A program made the translations under genes and the position numbers. Shown in pieces: positions 193 through 39,609 of a stretch of DNA of 39,860 nt. Origin of the DNA: a virus; UHGV virus genome UHGV-0224961, one strand, 5' to 3'. Every line of letters starts with the position of its first letter. The stretch's first letter is position 1. The notes under the pieces are model-generated. The model was not told the DNA's origin. It did not search any database and saw only the letters and a list, made by a program, of their open reading frames with translations.

Positions 193-1443
193 GTGCTTAC
201 CGATACAAAATTAAAAAACCTCAAGCCACAGGACAAACTGTACAAAGTTTCCGATCGTGACGGGCTGTATGTAGCTGTGCTTACGTCAGGTACGGTCTCG
301 TTTCGCTATGACTACCGTATCAACGGTCGCCGCGAAACACTGGTAATCGGGCAGTATGGGCGTGACGGTATCAGCCTGGCAGAAGCGCGAGAAGAACTGA
401 TTGCTGCAAAGAAGCTGCTTAAAGCAGGCCAGTCGCCGGCTGCGGCTAAACGTGACGGTATCAAAAAGATTCGTGGTGCCGAGACGTTTGCGGTACATAC
501 CGACAGTTATATGAAACACGTCATCCTGGCTGAAAGTACCCGCGCAATGAAGCAGGCGGTGATCGACCGTGACATACTTCCGGTTCTTGGCAACAAAATG
601 ATGGCTGAAATTACCACATCGATGGTTCGTGATTTGTGTGACCGGATTGTCGAACGCGGTGGTCGGGCAACAGCAGTACAGGCCAGGGAGATCATCAGCA
701 GCGTATACCGTCACGCCAATGACCGTGGTCATGGTTTGTTTAATCCTGCTGCTGACATTAAACCTTCGTCTATCGCCATATTTAAACCACGAGAGCGAAC
801 ACTGACACCAGAAGAAATTGGTCTGTTCTTCCGCACGCTGGATGCCATTGGTGCTATGGGCACTATGAAAATGGCTTTAAAGCTGGTGCTTATCACTATG
901 GTTCGTAAAGGCGAATTCACCAATGCAACGTGGGATGAAATAGATTTTAAAAAATGGACATGGACAATTCCTTCAGACCGCATGAAGGGAAGCCGGGCGC
1001 ATGTTATTTACCTGCCTAAACAGGCTCAGGATATATTGGTCGGGTTGCAGATGTGCGCTGGTGGAAGTGAATATCTGGTTCCTGGTCGTTACAATTTCAG
1101 GAAGCCATTATCTAATGCCGCGCTGAACTCTCTGATCGACAGAACGGTGAAAATAATAAATGAAGATGGTGAGCATATTCAGGACTTCACCGTACACGAT
1201 ATGCGCCGTACAGCCAGTACGTTGTTGCATGAGGCTGGTTATCCTTCAGACTGGATTGAAAAGGCTCTGGCACATGAGCAGAAAGGTGTGCGCGCCGTAT
1301 ATAACAAAGCGGAATACGCCAGACAGCGCGCCTACATGTTGCAGCAGTGGTCCGATATGATTGATTCCTGGATTAACGGGGAGCATACGGATCTGATTCC
1401 GTTCTCCCCGTCGAAGTTTGAGAAGTGGATGGCGGGGGAATAA
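193..1443 (+). CDS. int: Tyrosine integrase, P4-type
   Basis: 416 aa; GTG start; N-terminus LTDTKLKNLKP..KLYKVSDRDGLY matches the conserved P4-like integrase arm-binding N-terminal domain; C-terminal catalytic region with HDMRRT and Y. Confidence 0.9.
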   Translation: MLTDTKLKNLKPQDKLYKVSDRDGLYVAVLTSGTVSFRYDYRINGRRETLVIGQYGRDGISLAEAREELIAAKKLLKAGQSPAAAKRDGIKKIRGAETFAVHTDSYMKHVILAESTRAMKQAVIDRDILPVLGNKMMAEITTSMVRDLCDRIVERGGRATAVQAREIISSVYRHANDRGHGLFNPAADIKPSSIAIFKPRERTLTPEEIGLFFRTLDAIGAMGTMKMALKLVLITMVRKGEFTNATWDEIDFKKWTWTIPSDRMKGSRAHVIYLPKQAQDILVGLQMCAGGSEYLVPGRYNFRKPLSNAALNSLIDRTVKIINEDGEHIQDFTVHDMRRTASTLLHEAGYPSDWIEKALAHEQKGVRAVYNKAEYARQRAYMLQQWSDMIDSWINGEHTDLIPFSPSKFEKWMAGE

Positions 1444-5144: not shown

Positions 5145-5234
5145 TTACCTCGGTCTGTTACCGTTGAGGTAATGATTATGCGTATTTGGTTTGGTGTCAA
5201 TAGATATGAGTTAAAAAAATTACCCGTTAGGTAA
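5145..5234. promoter_or_regulatory. OL-like operator cluster: two perfect TTACC-N5-GGTAA palindromes (5158-5172, 5220-5234) plus a TTACC half-site
   Basis: Palindromes lie between the repressor terminator and the first leftward early gene. Confidence 0.6.
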
Positions 5235-5245
5235 TCAAATAAGCA

Positions 5246-5291: not shown

Positions 5292-5876
5292 TTATTGTTT
5301 GTTTTTTTCGTTCTGGTTGATGACAAATTCAATGTAACTTTCGATCTTTGCCTTCTCTGTTTCAGGTAACAATGCGTAGCGCGAGCGGTCATAGTTGATA
5401 GTCGCGGGGTCGTGCGGGTGAATCAGTAATTCATATCCGTGACGCCCAAATGCGGATGCAACATTCTCCAGGGTGGAAATGGAAACGCTGACCTCATTGT
5501 TTAACAGGCGGCTGATTGTTACCTGGGCGACGCCGGATGCGCGGTGAAGTTTTCCCTGCGTTGAAAGGTCGCGGCTTTCGCTCATCCAGCGTTCCAGGTT
5601 GTGAGCCGCCAGTTGACCAATGTCGCTTGGTCCGACAGGCTGAAAACCTTCCTGAGAAAGCGAGCGATCGATATCAAGCCAGTTACGGGGTTTATTGGCG
5701 GCAGCTTCAATTTTTCGCGCAACCTGGTCGCCGATAACCTTCTTGCCAAGAGCCCAGCGGTTTACCAGATTTGCCTGAGTTCCAAGTTTTTCAGCCATCC
5801 GCGTCTGAACACCATTGAATTCACGGTCGATCAAGTCGTTGAGATTTTGCCTGCGGACGTCCTGGATACTTTTCAT
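5292..5876 (-). CDS. CI-like repressor with two HTH-like regions and no S24 peptidase domain
   Basis: 194 aa; N-terminal XRE-type HTH (TRMAEKLGTQANLVNRWALGKK); second HTH-like segment (ASGVAQVTISRLLNNE); no G-S-M / Lys autocleavage motifs seen; flanked by operator clusters. Confidence 0.75.
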   Translation of the reverse strand: MKSIQDVRRQNLNDLIDREFNGVQTRMAEKLGTQANLVNRWALGKKVIGDQVARKIEAAANKPRNWLDIDRSLSQEGFQPVGPSDIGQLAAHNLERWMSESRDLSTQGKLHRASGVAQVTISRLLNNEVSVSISTLENVASAFGRHGYELLIHPHDPATINYDRSRYALLPETEKAKIESYIEFVINQNEKNKQ

Positions 5877-5931
5877 TTTCTGGAAAATCGCCTCATATCT
5901 GAATCAGAAGATGATTCAATTTAAAGCAATA

Positions 5932-5994
5932 TTACCCAACAGGTAAATGCACCTCATGGGTAACTATCCTTGATTTTTGTTACCTTATAGGTGA
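5932..5994. promoter_or_regulatory. OR-like operator cluster: TTACC-CAACA-GGTAA (5932-5946), GCACC-TCATG-GGTAA (5949-5963), TTACC-TTATA-GGTGA (5980-5994)
   Basis: One perfect and two imperfect palindromes in the 154-bp divergent region between the repressor and the cro-like gene. Confidence 0.65.
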
Positions 5995-6030
5995 ATATTT
6001 ATTATCTGAAATAAATATCAGGCAATAGCT

Positions 6031-6261
6031 ATGAGCGATAACGGACATTTCGATTTCAAAAAGCACTGGCTTGCACTTACTCCGGATGAGCGTGAAGCCT
6101 TCGCACAGGAAGCCGGAACGACGAGTCACTATATCCAGACTCACTTAACAGGTAAGCGCAAAATGCCAGGTAAGGTATTGATGAATGGGCTTTTTAAAGC
6201 CTGTAAATCAAGACAATGGCTGCGCTCAAAAGCAGAACTGGCATACTTCTTCTACTCATGA
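6031..6261 (+). CDS. Cro-like HTH protein
   Basis: 76 aa; divergent from the repressor; HTH-like segment LTPDEREAFAQEAGTTSHYIQTHLTGKRK. Confidence 0.65.
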   Translation: MSDNGHFDFKKHWLALTPDEREAFAQEAGTTSHYIQTHLTGKRKMPGKVLMNGLFKACKSRQWLRSKAELAYFFYS

Positions 6262-8226: not shown

Positions 8227-8238
8227 ACGCCCACATGA

Positions 8239-8315
8239 TTACCTGATGGGTAATAAAATATTCTAGTATCTATTGATTTCATGTCTTATGTGGTTTTTAA
8301 TTACCTAAGGGGTAA
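8239..8315. promoter_or_regulatory. Two perfect TTACC-N5-GGTAA palindromes (8239-8253, 8301-8315) bracketing a TATCTA-N14-TATGTGGTT promoter-like motif
   Basis: Second palindrome ends 3 nt before the ATG at 8319. Confidence 0.55.
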
Positions 8316-8318
8316 ATC

Positions 8319-13249: not shown

Positions 13250-13260
13250 GCATGGTACTA

Positions 13261-13293
13261 TTACCACAACGGTAACTATTACCACGGTGGTTA
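13261..13293. promoter_or_regulatory. Operator-like TTACC-ACAAC-GGTAA (13261-13275) plus imperfect TTACC-ACGGT-GGTTA (13279-13293) immediately upstream of terS
   Basis: Same palindrome family as at the repressor gene. Confidence 0.5.
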
Positions 13294-13295
13294 TG

Positions 13296-15514: not shown

Positions 15515-15591
15515 GAACTGGAAGCAATGAGTTATGCCTTCCGTGGCTGTACTGGTTTACAGCATGAAGTCATCGCAATGGCGTCCTGCTG

Positions 15592-15677: not shown

Positions 15678-15754
15678 TGGCGTGGCATGCAGGATTCGAA
15701 CCTGCGACCAACCGCTTAGAAGGCGGTTGCTCTGTCCAACTGAGCTAATGCCAC
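15678..15754 (-). tRNA. tRNA-Arg (anticodon UCU), phage-encoded
   Basis: Reverse complement folds as a canonical 77-nt cloverleaf: acceptor GTGGCAT/ATGCCAC, D-stem GCTC/GAGC, anticodon stem ACCGC/GCGGT, loop CTTCTAA, T-stem GCAGG/CCTGC, TTCGAAT loop, discriminator G, CCA encoded. Confidence 0.85.
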
Positions 15755-16076
15755 AACGCTGAGAGCACTTAGCCTGTTAAGGCGCCACACTTTGTCGCGG
15801 CTCCATAAATGCTCTCATCGTTGTACCCTCGTCTCTTCCGAGGCGTCACACCGAATCGCCGGGATGGTGAATCCCCGTGCGCGGAATAAAACCGCTCGAC
15901 TTGCACATTCCGGCTACCTGGTTCGTTTGCCCGAGCAAGGGAGGGTGCCCCTTAAACGTATCCAGACCGCTATCGTCGCATGTGCCATACGCCGTACTGC
16001 TCAAAATAAAAGCTCACTCCACCTGTTCAATTTAACGACAAGCCAGTCAGGTTAGTAACTGGAATGAACTCTTTGG

Positions 16077-16143
16077 TTACCTGAAAGGTAATAATTCTCG
16101 CGTTAAATGTCAACTATCTACGATAAATAAATCATATGTGGTT
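16077..16143. promoter_or_regulatory. Perfect operator TTACC-TGAAA-GGTAA (16077-16091) plus TATCTA-N14-TATGTGGTT motif (16115-16143) upstream of the head operon
   Basis: A minus-strand TTGACA -35-like hexamer at 16108-16113 points leftward toward the tRNA. Confidence 0.5.
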
Positions 16144-20074: not shown

Positions 20075-20125
20075 CGCCTGTTATTAACCTGTGGGTCGTA
20101 ACAGACCCACTAATGGAGAAAGAAG

Positions 20126-32169: not shown

Positions 32170-32343
32170 GTGTTTTTAATTATTTTGAGTGTGATAATTT
32201 CTGGTGGGTTGTTATTTATTGACCGCTACAAATATTTTCTTAACCCTCAGACTCAAGCTATTTGCTGGTTCATCTTTGTTGTGCAGGGAATAGTTCTTGT
32301 TGCAAGCCTTATTGAGGGGAGGCCTCTGATTTTTACTGGGTAA
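32170..32343 (+). CDS. Small hydrophobic protein (57 aa; GTG start)
   Basis: Hand-translated VFLIILSVIISGGLLFIDRYKYFLNPQTQAICWFIFVVQGIVLVASLIEGRPLIFTG; GGAAG RBS; below the ORF-track cutoff. Confidence 0.3.
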   Translation: MFLIILSVIISGGLLFIDRYKYFLNPQTQAICWFIFVVQGIVLVASLIEGRPLIFTG

Positions 32344-32355
32344 ATAGGTGACTAC

Positions 32356-32652
32356 ATGCAAGCTATAGGATTCATTGTTTATATCGTCGTTGGTCTTTTT
32401 CAGTTGGCAGCAATTATGGCTGGGCTTGAATCATGGTGGGGATTGCACTGGATAATTGCAGCCCCCATTGCTTTCATCGTGAGCTATATTCCATTTGTTG
32501 GAGCGATTGTTGGTATGGTTGGCGCTGTGGATGTATGGCGGTGGGAGTGGTGGCAGGCTGGCCTTCTCTTCTTTGGTGGGATCATCTTTGCTATTGTCTG
32601 CGGTGGAATGTCATCATTTTTCGAATGGCTATCATTCAGAAAAAGAGCGTGA
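32356..32652 (+). CDS. Small integral membrane protein (about 3 TM segments)
   Basis: 98 aa, very hydrophobic; stop codon lies inside GTGACATGTCAC. Confidence 0.5.
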   Translation: MQAIGFIVYIVVGLFQLAAIMAGLESWWGLHWIIAAPIAFIVSYIPFVGAIVGMVGAVDVWRWEWWQAGLLFFGGIIFAIVCGGMSSFFEWLSFRKRA

Positions 32653-32660: not shown

Positions 32661-32686
32661 AGGCCGCTCTTGCGGCCTTTAAATTT
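32661..32686. terminator. Terminator-like hairpin aggccgc-tctt-gcggcct between convergent genes
   Basis: 7-bp stem followed by ttaaattt. Confidence 0.5.
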
Positions 32687-32942
32687 ACCGGGTTTGTTTT
32701 CGTAATTGTTCGGCACAATAGTCGAGATGTGTTTGCAGATCCCGCATAGACATCTGTGAGCTGGTGACGTAGTTAATCAGTGCAGTCAGTTCGGCAAGTG
32801 GGCCATCGACATTAAATCCATCCTTATCGAGATCCCGGAGTAATTTCATCAAGTGCGATCCCTCCACCAGTGACCTGACGCCTCCCGGCGTGTGAATCCT
32901 TTCGGTAAATCCGTCTTCCAGTGGATAGTGATACTGCTGCAT
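32685..32942 (-). CDS. Small protein (85 aa) behind a LexA box; candidate SOS-inducible antirepressor
   Basis: Start ATG 32942 with GGAGAAG RBS; LexA box 22-37 nt upstream; an alternative start at 33008 would place the box inside the coding sequence. Confidence 0.5.
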   Translation of the reverse strand: MQQYHYPLEDGFTERIHTPGGVRSLVEGSHLMKLLRDLDKDGFNVDGPLAELTALINYVTSSQMSMRDLQTHLDYCAEQLRKQTR

Positions 32943-32963
32943 CTTATCTTCTCCATGCAATAA

Positions 32964-32979
32964 CTGTATATTTATACAG
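32964..32979. promoter_or_regulatory. LexA (SOS) box CTGT-ATATTTAT-ACAG
   Basis: aACTGTATATTTATACAGTa matches the E. coli consensus TACTGT(AT)4ACAGTA with one spacer change; contains a TATAAAT -10-like element on the minus strand. Confidence 0.7.
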
Positions 32980-33018
32980 TAGCAAATAATTTGTTTGCTA
33001 TCCAGCACGTTTTGCGAA

Positions 33019-33073
33019 TCACCTGAAAGGTAATATCTGTTCGTATTTATGGGTTATCTATCCATATGTGGTT
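33019..33073. promoter_or_regulatory. Operator-like TCACC-TGAAA-GGTAA (33019-33033) plus TATCTA...TATGTGGTT motif (33055-33073) upstream of the tailspike
   Basis: Same motif family as at 8239 and 16077. Confidence 0.5.
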
Positions 33074-33137
33074 TTTCAGGTAATAGAATAACCGGATATG
33101 CGGCGCAACGGGTGCTGCGACTATCTGGAGATTTAAC

Positions 33138-36113
33138 ATGACGGTCTCAACCGAAGTTGACCACAACGAATACACAGGTAACGGCGTTACGACATCATTT
33201 CCGTATACCTTTAGGGTTTTCAAGGAATCTGATCTGGCAGTACAGGTGGTTGACCTTGACGAAAATATCGCTGTGCTGGCTCTTGATACTGATTACACTG
33301 TCACTGGGGCTGGTGGATATAATGGCGGTAATGTAATTCTGTCGAAGGCGTTAGCTAACGGTTATCAGATTTCTATATCACGAGAGCTACCGGTTACGCA
33401 GGAAACTGATCTGCGAAATCAGGGAAAGTTTTTCGCTGAGGTGCATGAAGACGCGTTAGATAAGCTGACGATGCTGATACAGCAAGTCCGCAGTTGGTTT
33501 AGCCTGGCGCTGCGCAAACCATCATTTGTGGCAAACTATTACGATGCTTTGAATAATTACATCCGTAATTTGCGCGATCCTTCCAAGCCTCAAGATGCAG
33601 CTACAAAGAATTATGTTGATAATATTGTTAATGTGAATATTAACAGGACATTACGGGTTCCAGATAATTTTATTGAACCACTTCCTCCAGTTCATTTACT
33701 GGAAGAAACTGTCATTGGTATCGTCAATGGTAAACCTATAGGTGTACCTGTGCCTTCTGGCAGTGCCGCAGATGTTCTTCTGCAATTATCTAGCGCAGGA
33801 GAAGGAAAAGGTGATGCATTAATTGGTGTAAGGCAGCCATTTGCCGGGGCTGTAACTATAACTCAGCATGAAAACAATGCTCTTTTCTTAAATGTAAAAC
33901 AATTCGGAGCAATTGGGGATGGGAAATATCATCCATTATCTGAGAGGTTTTCTTCAATTTCTGAAGCAAAATCCTTATATCCTTTTGTTGACTCATTATC
34001 TCAGTCAATAGACTGGGCCGCGTGGCAAGCTGCCATTAACACAGGAAAGGTTATTTATGGTACTGATAATGCGTATGTAATAACGGATACGTTAACACCT
34101 GTTTCTGGTGGTGGGATAATTGGTCTTGGTGTGGGCAAATGGGTCTCTGGATATACTGCAACATTTGCTCCTGATATTACCACAGGGACCACATTCCTGA
34201 TGTACGGTGTAGGAAATAAAAAATATACTGTAGATTGTGTTTCTAATATGGATGTTAGTGGTGGTGTGGTTTCTAATCCATCTTCCGAAGACCCGTATAC
34301 AACAACGGCACCTGCGTCATCATATGATTTATTGGATTTTACTAACGGTGATGCTAATGGGGCTACAAGAGCCACGCTTAAACCATTCTCTGCCGCAATA
34401 TTGATGCCAGAGACAGGATGTGTTCGCCTTGAGAACTTTCGTATTGTTCCATATTTCAATGGGCTGGATGGTTATAAAGACATTGCAAATACCGGTCTTG
34501 GCGATGAGTGGGATGTAGGTATTTGGTCACGTGCGTCTTTTGGCAATGAATACCGCAATTTGCAGGTGGTTGGATACTGGCGCAAGACGGCACTTTTAAA
34601 AACGAACATTCCTGTATCTGGCACGCTGGCCGCTCAGGGCGAGGATGAAAACTATTATCACTGTAGATTCCAGGGATTCAAGGGTGTTTCGATCCGCGCC
34701 CATGATGTATTCCGAATTACAGCGGTAACGTCCAGCACTATCGAAATCCCATGGTCATCAAGCCACACCTTCGAAACGTCCGGGGTTTTAAGATCGGGAG
34801 GCAGGAATTTCACTTATTCAGGATTATCCGTATCCGGTGATAAGTTAGTATTTACTGGAGTGTCTAACGCTTCTGAGGCAACAGTAGGTTCTACTATACG
34901 GCGAAATGACATAGATAACTTTGGTATGGCGGGAACGCAATTTTTCGATTGCTACATTACCAGCCTGTATCACCACACACATCTGCTTGCCACATCGCAA
35001 TACCTGTCTCAGCCATTCAGCCGGCCATCAGAGTGTATGGAGGTTTCAGGGGAACCAGTTCGCGGTGTACAGGTACATGCGGGAACCATTCAGGGATGGG
35101 ATGATGTTCTTATTCATCTGCATGACTGTGGAAATATGAACTTTTACAGTACATATTTCGAAAGCCAGCAAGCATATGTAACTATAAATGGTGGTAATGC
35201 TATTGGTTATGGAGCACGTATGATAGCTTCCCGGCAATCAACAAGCTCATTACCATATGCAGCAGGGAATACTCGAGTGCTTAGAATGGTCGGGTGCTCT
35301 GAAGGCAATGGCGTTGACTGGGGTCCTGTATTTAACAACTATACAGGAGGAAGATATAATTCTGGAGACGGTGTATTTAACCCCCGCGATGCATTTATAG
35401 ACCATAAATCTCTTCCTGAGCAGTCAGGAGGTGAGTCAAGACTCGTATCACAAAAAGGAAATGCCAGAGTAGTATGTGGTGTTGGTAAAACTGTACTGCT
35501 TGGACCAACGTCAGGAGATTGTAATTTACAGAGCAATACTGGAAGTTTAAATATTAGAAGTGGGATAAGAGTAAGAATCGGTCACGCTGATGGAACAGAC
35601 TGGTGGTTGGCAGATGCTAATAAAATAGCTCCTGTTGATGATAATGTTAAAGCTATTGGACAGCCATCAAACAGATGCTCTGTTATCTATGCAGGAACCG
35701 GGTCAATCAATACGTCAGATGAAACTCTTAAAACAAGATATGATATTCTTAATGCAGAGCGTAATGCCGCTATTGAAATAAAGTCAGTCATCTATAAATT
35801 TAAATTTAATGACTCAATTAATCACAAAGGAATTGAGTCGTCCAGGTATCATTTTGGCGTTGGCGCTCAAACCGTAGGGGATATTCTTAGAAAGCATGGT
35901 TTAAACCCTGAGCAATATGCTTTTTGGTGTTACGATGAATGGCCTGACGTATGGGATGAAGAGGTGATAACTGAAGAGAGCACAGATCCTGATACAGGTG
36001 AGAAAATTTATTCTCAATATAAAACAGGAGATATGATTCTTGTAAAAAAAGCAGGAGGACGCTACGGAATTCGTTATGACGAATTAGCCATGTTTATATT
36101 AATGTCAATGTAA
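33138..36113 (+). CDS. Tailspike with C-terminal intramolecular chaperone-like domain
   Basis: 991 aa; central region likely beta-helix (FGAIGDGKYHP); C-terminal region resembles S74-type self-cleaving chaperone domains of tail fibres as recalled; AT-rich from about 33500 onward. Confidence 0.8.
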   Translation: MTVSTEVDHNEYTGNGVTTSFPYTFRVFKESDLAVQVVDLDENIAVLALDTDYTVTGAGGYNGGNVILSKALANGYQISISRELPVTQETDLRNQGKFFAEVHEDALDKLTMLIQQVRSWFSLALRKPSFVANYYDALNNYIRNLRDPSKPQDAATKNYVDNIVNVNINRTLRVPDNFIEPLPPVHLLEETVIGIVNGKPIGVPVPSGSAADVLLQLSSAGEGKGDALIGVRQPFAGAVTITQHENNALFLNVKQFGAIGDGKYHPLSERFSSISEAKSLYPFVDSLSQSIDWAAWQAAINTGKVIYGTDNAYVITDTLTPVSGGGIIGLGVGKWVSGYTATFAPDITTGTTFLMYGVGNKKYTVDCVSNMDVSGGVVSNPSSEDPYTTTAPASSYDLLDFTNGDANGATRATLKPFSAAILMPETGCVRLENFRIVPYFNGLDGYKDIANTGLGDEWDVGIWSRASFGNEYRNLQVVGYWRKTALLKTNIPVSGTLAAQGEDENYYHCRFQGFKGVSIRAHDVFRITAVTSSTIEIPWSSSHTFETSGVLRSGGRNFTYSGLSVSGDKLVFTGVSNASEATVGSTIRRNDIDNFGMAGTQFFDCYITSLYHHTHLLATSQYLSQPFSRPSECMEVSGEPVRGVQVHAGTIQGWDDVLIHLHDCGNMNFYSTYFESQQAYVTINGGNAIGYGARMIASRQSTSSLPYAAGNTRVLRMVGCSEGNGVDWGPVFNNYTGGRYNSGDGVFNPRDAFIDHKSLPEQSGGESRLVSQKGNARVVCGVGKTVLLGPTSGDCNLQSNTGSLNIRSGIRVRIGHADGTDWWLADANKIAPVDDNVKAIGQPSNRCSVIYAGTGSINTSDETLKTRYDILNAERNAAIEIKSVIYKFKFNDSINHKGIESSRYHFGVGAQTVGDILRKHGLNPEQYAFWCYDEWPDVWDEEVITEESTDPDTGEKIYSQYKTGDMILVKKAGGRYGIRYDELAMFILMSM

Positions 36114-36123
36114 TAATAAATGC

Positions 36124-36160
36124 AATAACCCCGAATAAAACAGCGGGGTTATTGTTATTA
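36124..36160 (+). terminator. Terminator hairpin after the tailspike
   Basis: 10-bp stem aataaccccg/cggggttatt followed by T-rich sequence. Confidence 0.55.
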
Positions 36161-36519
36161 TAATAATGCTCTTAACTTCTTAAATGATATTTATATGCAC
36201 TTAGATTATTAAATCTATATTATGCCTGTTATTTATGTGTTCTGTTATATGTTTTGCAGGCACTGTTGGCAGCATTAAAGGAAATTGTATTTATGGCGAA
36301 ATAGCTGGTATCGTGTTTTTATTGTGCGTAAAAATAACAGACTGCATATATTATTGTATAAAGTTTTGGAAATGAAAACACTCAAACTTACCGCTGTGGA
36401 TATGTTTTGACCATCGCGAATTGGATTGGTAATATTGGGTAACAAAAAACCATAAATGGTTTATCATGCGTAATGCTTTACTGTTCAGGAGGTAGTTATG
36501 CATATAAACGGTGGAAAAC

Positions 36520-38317: not shown

Positions 38318-38471
38318 CATGGCATTTTTCATGGTACTGATTTCCGGTGACGGTATATAAAACGGTACTAGAAAAATGAAGTTTTGGAAAAATGTTATCA
38401 CTCAATTGGTTATGATTGTCGTAAATAATTGAGTGGGAATGATTTGATCCCTGCACTATGAATTAGCAAAA

Positions 38472-38535: not shown

Positions 38536-39075
38536 TTAGTTAAACCAGCTGTCCGATTTGTTCTCTTCTGCTTTGCCCACGCTTTTCATCAGATCGCGAC
38601 CGCCTTCAGTCATATTCCTGTTTGCGTCAGCTTCAGATTGCACCACATCGGTTTGCGCAGCTTTGTGCTTCAGTTCCTGATCGATAAATTCGTTTTCTCG
38701 CTTAACGCGGGCTTCTTCTTTCGCCAGCGCCAGTTTTTGTTTCTGAATCTCTAAGCTGCGTAGCTCATCTTCATAACTTTGATCGCGTTTCTTGTCCGCA
38801 GTGGCTTCGGCGTCCAGTTTATCCTGACGAGCTTTCTTATTCGCCGCTGCCGTTGCCGCTCTTTTATTAGCCGCGGCCTGGGCGTTTGCGCGACGTTGCT
38901 TCTCTTGCTGGATTTCCCTGTTGCGCTCCGCGACCCATTCGTCATGCTGCCTTTGCTCTTCATTTTTACCTTGCTGTTCCGCTTCTGCGACAGCAGAGAG
39001 TTGATCCTGCAATGATGAGGCGATAGCCGGATAGCTTAAGGAGGCTAAGATGGCGCAAAGAAAAACTTTCTTCAT
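38536..39075 (-). CDS. Secreted charged coiled-coil protein (probable host or cargo gene)
   Basis: Signal peptide MKKVFLCAILASLSYPAIA; Lys/Glu/Ala/Gln-rich. Confidence 0.6.
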   Translation of the reverse strand: MKKVFLCAILASLSYPAIASSLQDQLSAVAEAEQQGKNEEQRQHDEWVAERNREIQQEKQRRANAQAAANKRAATAAANKKARQDKLDAEATADKKRDQSYEDELRSLEIQKQKLALAKEEARVKRENEFIDQELKHKAAQTDVVQSEADANRNMTEGGRDLMKSVGKAEENKSDSWFN

Positions 39076-39090
39076 GACTCCTCCTGATTA

Positions 39091-39609
39091 TTAGCTCTTT
39101 TCAGGACATTTGGTATTTGGCTGAATACGCGTTTCGTTATACGTCGTGGTAATAACAACGGCTAAACCTGTCGTAAACTGGCACTCTTTACCCACCTGGG
39201 TGGAGGTATACACTTTGGTGCCTTCCTTATACGTTAGAGAAACACCTTCCACTAAGGTTTTATCATTCACCATAGAACCTGCTGCCGCGCCAACAGCTCC
39301 GCCGCCAACTGCACCTGCCGTCGTTCCGGAATTGCTGCCAGACCCCACGTTGTGGCCGATAACACCGCCAGCGACTGCACCAATAAGCGCGCCGAAGGCT
39401 TGTGCGTTTCGTTTATTTTGGGAGTTGTCTACGGCAACTTTTGCGGGAAGAATGGAAATAATATTAACGGTTTTAGTTTCTTGTTTGGTATTCAGTTGAT
39501 CGGTTTGATAAACATCGGCGGCATGATCATCAGCATTTGACTGGCATCCTGCCAGAGTGAATGACGCTAACATTGCCACAGGCAGAAGACATTTTTTAAA
39601 TTTCATCAC
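39091..39609 (-). CDS. Lipoprotein with glycine-zipper motif (YcfJ-like)
   Basis: Lipobox FTLAGC; GALIGAVAGGVIGHNVGSG glycine zipper. Confidence 0.7.
   Translation of the reverse strand: MMKFKKCLLPVAMLASFTLAGCQSNADDHAADVYQTDQLNTKQETKTVNIISILPAKVAVDNSQNKRNAQAFGALIGAVAGGVIGHNVGSGSNSGTTAGAVGGGAVGAAAGSMVNDKTLVEGVSLTYKEGTKVYTSTQVGKECQFTTGLAVVITTTYNETRIQPNTKCPEKS

Follow-up and report, generated by a model that had tools for sequence, protein, structure and literature searches.

The question raised by this locus was whether a small gene transcribed away from a tailspike gene, with a LexA box in front of it, is the switch through which DNA damage induces a prophage whose repressor lacks a self-cleavage domain. 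The window, i.e., the whole stretch of 39,860 nucleotides that was analysed (virus genome UHGV-0224961), represents a phage genome similar to phiV10 and carries integrase, RecET, rep/cro, replication, terminase, portal, tailspike, and lysis genes. In the initial annotation, a near-consensus SOS box was placed upstream of an 85-aa minus-strand ORF, which was proposed to encode a LexA-repressed antirepressor acting on a non-self-cleaving repressor. This proposal is borne out by homology to Ant and Rep of phage SPC32H, by the missing S24 domain of the repressor, and by the conserved box. With high confidence, the module is regarded as the switch from SOS response to lysis in a temperate E. coli podophage of the epsilon15/phiV10 type (Uetakevirus), and as orthologous to SPC32H Ant-Rep-LexA. 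The locus is thus not the unexplored candidate it was taken for, as the Ant/Rep switch is already known (genetics published in 2013, crystal structure in 2016).

The ORF (ant, 32685..32942, minus strand) exists as described, has an ATG start, and is transcribed away from the tailspike gene (33138-36113; 991 aa). A Shine-Dalgarno sequence GGAG was read from the sequence 8 nt upstream of the ATG (32951..32954, minus strand) and is invariant across an alignment of ten phages. A search of the 85-aa product against antirepressor families, which had been suggested as a check, overturned the statement that its sequence matches nothing. A single PDB sequence was matched by phmmer, namely 5D50 chain E (“Anti-repressor protein,” E = 1.4e-46), 72 of 83 residues (87%) are identical to SPC32H Ant, and the protein was assigned to phrog_450 (E = 7e-48). 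Additionally, the C-terminal part of the phrog_1760 “anti-repressor” profile matches residues 27-75. Since the protein is 87% identical to one of solved structure, its identity is considered settled. The gene is labelled “ant: anti-repressor protein” in the SPC32H record (KC911856), and the same label is used for SPC32N. With Pfam, neither a Bro-N, KilA-N, ANT, or P22_AR domain (E ≤ 0.1) nor a DinI match was found in Ant, and no family model of Pfam or NCBIfam covers the protein; a DUF724 match (17 bits vs. a cut-off of 38 bits) was discarded as noise. A 107-aa reading starting from a GTG at 33008 was likewise rejected because the LexA box and the conserved GGAG would fall within the coding sequence, and because the ATG start is the one supported by alignment with the homologues, the crystallised protein of 86 aa among them. 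Between ant and the convergent membrane-protein genes lies a GC-rich stem-loop (32661..32678; 7 pairs, 6 of them G-C) that was assigned as a terminator; in the epsilon15 record, the counterpart is listed as a rho-independent terminator.

Ant presumably targets the prophage repressor Rep (rep, 5292..5876, minus strand; 194 aa), from which a cro-like gene diverges at 6031..6261 (plus strand; phrog_35 “transcriptional repressor,” E = 9e-13). The initial observation that this CI-like repressor shows no S24/LexA-like autocleavage motifs was upheld by Pfam profile search, in which Peptidase_S24 was sought and only HTH_3 and weak HTH-type matches were obtained. At E ≤ 0.01, the PDB sequences matched were 5D50 and 5D4Z only, with 5D50 chain A (“Repressor”) matched along residues 1-190 (E = 4e-42), and the protein is homologous to SPC32H Rep over its full length at 42% identity. 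Within the last 35 residues, 13 (I160, Y162, D163, Y167, L170, P171, E174, K175, K177, I178, F184, Q188, and N189) are invariant in an alignment of six Rep sequences spanning three deep types. According to PMC9986798, Rep interacts with Ant through its C-terminal “CAD” domain, which mediates tetramerisation. The 13 invariant tail residues therefore suggest that the Ant-facing part of Rep has been conserved despite an overall identity of 42%; the Ant-Rep contact predicted for this phage is extrapolated from a crystallised Rep with which its own Rep has only 42% identity.

Searching a phage collection with tblastn yielded Ant in 35 phage records, without exception podophages of the epsilon15/phiV10 type (Uetakevirus) from Escherichia, Salmonella, Enterobacter, and Klebsiella. 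Rep was found in 37 phage records, the two sets being nearly identical. Among the relatives compared, Ant identity ranges from 59 to 99%, and Rep falls into three deep types (42-78%). The disparity between an Ant conserved at 87% and a Rep conserved at 42%, together with the two module copies seen in some E. coli genomes, would fit an Ant that no longer acts on the diverged resident Rep and either has another role or induces only co-resident prophages. Such an uncoupling is improbable given that the phage records with Ant largely coincide with those with Rep and that the C-terminal tail with its invariant residues is retained in all Rep types. Moreover, phage Tyrion combines a Salmonella-like Ant (12 differences from SPC32H Ant in 86 positions) with a Rep of the E. 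coli type that is 78% identical to the one in the window, which argues that Ant recognises a conserved surface. Induction of phiV10-type prophages by DNA damage speaks against the uncoupling as well: in E. coli gut isolates, a DNA-damaging microcin led to 21- and 47-fold induction of phiV10-species prophages (bioRxiv 10.64898/2026.05.26.727859, 2026 preprint).

The preferred reading, in which the small Ant itself would disable the resident Rep, also has to be weighed against larger Bro-N antirepressors such as ORF4 of vB_EcoP_ZX5, which might mainly drive induction with the small gene as an accessory. Overexpression of ZX5 ORF4 resulted in fewer lysogens (PMC9782041), and in phiV10 and Tyrion ant is immediately followed by a Bro-N gene on its own strand (phiV10 p23, L004:1771-2355; Tyrion gp20, L005:1773-2477). 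Tyrion gp20 has an Ant-like C-terminal domain, its last ~80 aa matching the entire Ant at 40% identity (E = 4e-20), and phiV10 p23 retains just the first ~30 aa of the Ant-like part. These Bro-N “anti-repressors” (Tyrion gp20, phiV10 p23, phrog_1760) thus have a C-terminal module in common with Ant, and from the matches to the C-termini of gp20 and phrog_1760 it follows that the Ant fold is a module also found fused to Bro-N; Ant differs in being devoid of the Bro-N domain, and the fusion gene is absent from the window. A leading role for a Bro-N protein is even harder to credit here than the uncoupling of Ant from Rep, as a search of the window for a second Ant-like sequence returned the ORF at 32685-32942 only, no antirepressor family was matched among the other window ORFs tested, SPC32H has no Bro-N gene either, and the slot taken by Bro-N in relatives is filled in the window by two plus-strand membrane-protein ORFs. 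These ORFs (32170-32343 and 32356-32652; 57 and 98 aa, hydrophobic) occupy a variable slot between the injection-protein gene and ant. The latter ORF belongs to phrog_3075, and the stretch 32170-32652 is, among phage records, common only to YDC107_2 and a Phi05_1999 fragment. Both ORFs may be superinfection-exclusion cargo.

The LexA (SOS) box that would place the small ant gene under SOS control was confirmed in coordinates and sequence at 32962-32981 (AACTGTATATTTATACAGTA, or TACTGTATAAATATACAGTT in ant sense; 20 bp, unstranded). It covers the positions 20-39 nt upstream of the ant ATG, with the CTGT-N8-ACAG core 22-37 nt upstream as initially annotated. Compared with the perfectly palindromic LexA consensus TACTGTATATATATACAGTA, it has 2 mismatches; no other site in the 39.9-kb window has ≤ 3, and 100 dinucleotide-preserving shuffles yielded no site at this threshold. 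The site was scored, as had been suggested, with a position weight matrix (PWM) for E. coli LexA, symmetrised and derived from 22 textbook E. coli SOS boxes, the entries of which may be imperfect in individual letters. These boxes reportedly go back to the compilations of Lewis from 1994 and of Fernandez de Henestrosa from 2000. The box reached 27.4 bits and thereby exceeded all known E. coli boxes tested (7.1 to 25.6 bits, leave-one-out), the runner-up site in the window (12.0 bits), and the top site of 200 shuffles (19.8 bits). The claim that the window holds no other CTGT-N8-ACAG site proved wrong, since exact matches were also found at 15547-15562 and 20089-20104. Both are poor LexA sites and were rejected as boxes, the former at 10.0 bits and the latter because it lies outside the eight top PWM sites of the window and hence scores at most 8.0 bits. 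The weak LexA-like site (10 bits, 15545-15564) is located near a tRNA-Arg(TCT) gene (15678-15754, minus strand) that is flanked by the terminase and portal genes, an arrangement also seen in SPC32H. A search of the window against Rfam gave one tRNA only and nothing near ant or the LexA box.

For the region from the tailspike start to the ant start, the window was aligned with nine relatives. The distance from the box to the ant start is equal in all ten Uetakeviruses (from Escherichia, Salmonella, Enterobacter, and Klebsiella), and the box has conserved arms and eight variable central bases, which is the pattern expected of a LexA site. In the SPC32H genome, exactly one near-consensus LexA box was found, at the ant promoter. 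Across 38,689 bases, SPC32H and SPC32N differ at exactly two, one being G19960T in the CTGT arm of the ant LexA box (equivalent to G32966 in the window) and the second being in the tailspike gene. By PWM, G19960T lowers the SPC32H box from 24.9 to 18.2 bits. These findings are in line with the 2013 abstract of Kim and Ryu, in which two nucleotide differences are reportedly described, with the mutation in the LexA site leading to constitutive Ant production and lytic behaviour.

A promoter for ant (P_ant) is proposed on the minus strand with a putative −10 hexamer TACTGT at 32976..32981, formed by the first 6 nt of the LexA box, and a putative −35 hexamer TGGATA at 32999..33004, i.e., 17 nt upstream of the −10. 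This proposal draws on conservation and on likeness to phage 186: CTGGA.A around the putative −35 is invariant in all ten aligned phages, TACTGT is invariant or nearly so, and the arrangement has the geometry of the 186 p95 promoter. The two hexamers agree with the sigma-70 consensus at just 7 of 12 positions, and a scan for that consensus gave no ant promoter at the proposed position. LexA bound at the box would cover the −10 and the transcription start. Beside the LexA box, a 10-nt inverted repeat (TAGCAAATAA/TTGTTTGCTA, 32980-33000) fills the spacer of the putative ant promoter; it is present in phiV10 and absent from the Salmonella, Enterobacter, and Klebsiella relatives. The location of the box in a shared divergent intergenic region and the negative consensus scan notwithstanding, the least credible reading is that the palindrome is a chance match or a tailspike regulator with the ORF outside SOS control, as no equally good site arose in 100 or 200 shuffles, the box lies 157 nt from the tailspike ATG and only 20 nt from the ant ATG, it is conserved genus-wide, and one of the two differences between SPC32H and SPC32N falls within it.

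A second element of the intergenic region from which ant and the tailspike gene diverge is a 17-bp palindrome, ATTACC-N5-GGTGAT (33018..33034, unstranded), and 13 bp separate it from the putative ant −35 downstream. It is conserved in the ten-phage alignment and is probably an operator of Rep. The family ATTACC-N5-GGTAAT, at ≤ 2 mismatches, has 36 matches in the window vs. 4.6 expected. Copies of the palindrome precede each transcription unit and were recorded at 135-151, 5157-5173, 5219-5235, 5931-5947, 5979-5995, 8238-8254, 8300-8316, 13260-13294, 16076-16092, and 33018-33034; the pair at 5931-5947 and 5979-5995 (unstranded) constitutes two Rep-operator palindromes within the rep-cro intergenic region (5931..5995). 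In the epsilon15 record, the homologous sites are marked as protein_bind “repressor,” including the counterpart of 33018-33034. The same palindrome is found at equivalent places in SPC32H (with the rep-cro operator equivalents at 34389-34452), although its Rep is only 42% identical. On the tailspike side, a conserved candidate promoter (TCCATA-17 nt-TAGAAT, 33061-33089) was noted that the consensus scan did not detect, and its −10 overlaps an operator half-site GGTAAT (33079-33084) that is invariant in 10 of 10 relatives. The tailspike protein itself (33138-36113, plus strand) has a borderline match to Peptidase_S74 (C-terminal endosialidase-type chaperone; 22.0 bits, at the cut-off) and a sub-threshold match to End_tail_spike (22.7 bits vs. 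a cut-off of 25). It is followed by about 400 bp (36114-36510) without an ORF over 60 aa, where SPC32H has O-antigen modification genes.

With the operator at 33018-33034 so close to P_ant, ant might be controlled by two inputs, the LexA box and a damping of P_ant by Rep, and one Ant might induce Uetakevirus prophages of differing Rep types in trans; this extension of the model is speculative and on balance doubtful. Action in trans on several Rep types is suggested because Ant is conserved, whereas Rep falls into three deep types. If Rep does damp P_ant, Ant would boost its own synthesis by inactivating Rep, and the resulting positive feedback would render induction irreversible.

The switch would operate as follows. 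In the lysogen, host LexA is predicted to sit on the box at 32962-32981, and, with the −10 and the likely start of transcription thereby covered, ant would be silent, while Rep on the ATTACC-N5-GGTAAT operators would keep the lytic promoters off. RecA should be unable to inactivate Rep directly, as Rep has no S24 autocleavage domain. DNA damage would instead lead to RecA-stimulated self-cleavage of LexA, by which P_ant would be freed and the 85-aa Ant produced. Ant, a tetramer in SPC32H, would then bind the C-terminal and N-terminal domains of Rep and split the DNA-binding Rep tetramer into dimers, so that Rep would be released from its operators and the lytic cycle would begin. The binding of LexA to the box and of Ant to Rep in this phage is what we infer from the SPC32H system, as described in later papers: Ant is made after self-cleavage of LexA and inhibits the repressor by protein-protein interaction (PMC7380047, citing Kim and Ryu 2013), and Rep binds DNA as a tetramer, which is broken when tetrameric Ant attaches to two dimers of Rep (PMC9638917, citing Kim et al. 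2016).

Every sequence-level defining feature of the SPC32H Ant/Rep system that was looked for was found in the window, and at that level the module is a member of it. Both phages belong to the genus Uetakevirus and have a single LexA box at equal distance from ant; in both, the injection-protein gene is followed by one or more small membrane-protein genes, by ant in opposite orientation, and by the tailspike gene; the two Ant proteins share 87% identity, the homology of the Rep proteins extends along their whole length, and ATTACC-N5-GGTAAT operators are located at equivalent positions. The system is said to have been described by Kim and Ryu (J Virol, 2013) and by Kim et al. (PNAS, 2016), with the structures PDB 5D50 and 5D4Z. 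The window phage differs in having E. coli as its host, in its Rep (only 42% identical), in a box nearer to the consensus (2 vs. 3 mismatches, 27.4 vs. 24.9 bits), in the genes between the injection-protein gene and ant, and in that the E. coli orthologue is not named ant in the databases.

The analogy initially drawn to phage 186 (Tum) and the Gifsy/Fels-type prophages holds for function and promoter layout, but not for homology. In 186, the CI repressor is likewise non-cleavable and is inactivated by a small antirepressor under LexA repression. The annotated p95 promoter of 186 and the putative P_ant have the same −10, TACTGT, which forms the first six bases of the 20-bp LexA box in both, and the distance from the end of the box to the start codon is 18 bases for p95/tum and 19 for P_ant/ant; the 186 box (TACTGTATGTTTATACAGTA) is identical to that of epsilon15. 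Homology between Ant and Tum was rejected (BLASTP E = 0.056, 14 of 47 positions identical with gaps; no DinI match in Pfam). Tum has 146 aa and is named a DinI-type RecA filament binding protein in its record, and 186 is a myovirus with a repressor of another family. By analogy, the shared p95 layout shows that Ant probably works like Tum; family membership is not thereby conferred. The Gifsy/Fels-type Salmonella antirepressors and AntC of N15 are small, LexA-repressed, and trans-acting proteins that bind the repressor without cleaving it; LexA control of the Gifsy/Fels-type antirepressors was reportedly described by Lemire et al. in 2011. They are set apart from Ant, by description, as other protein families. 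An antirepressor gene beside the tailspike gene of a temperate podophage is also known from P22, where immI (mnt-arc-ant) adjoins tailspike gene 9. P22 Ant is an unrelated protein of about 300 aa under the control of Mnt, Arc, and sar RNA instead of LexA, and the P22 c2 repressor self-cleaves.

The window contains a single copy (38428-38444) of ATTGAGTGGGAATGATT, which is given in PMC9782041 as the attP core of phiV10, epsilon15, and ZX5. Two minus-strand genes (38536-39609) separate it from the integrase gene (193-1443, plus strand) across the window ends, one of them DUF5384 and the other with glycine-zipper and weak TraT-like matches. Both may be cargo.

Because a published switch with a crystal structure was re-found, the biology adds little, and the practical value lies in the annotation of Ant. 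About 10% of complete E. coli genomes (529 of 5426) have the module, and among the matches listed the protein is labelled “hypothetical protein” in 15 of 15 records. In the 2022 paper on vB_EcoP_ZX5, a near relative, the name “anti-repressor” is given to another gene, the Bro-N gene ORF4 (PMC9782041); the ZX5 Rep is 100% identical to that of the window, and the ZX5 orthologue of ant (ZX5 2092-2346), 98.8% identical, is a “hypothetical protein” in GenBank. A correct label would explain how antibiotics and bacteriocins that damage DNA can elicit a response in phiV10-type prophages, among them prophages of O157 and other pathogenic E. coli, despite the non-cleavable repressor of these prophages.
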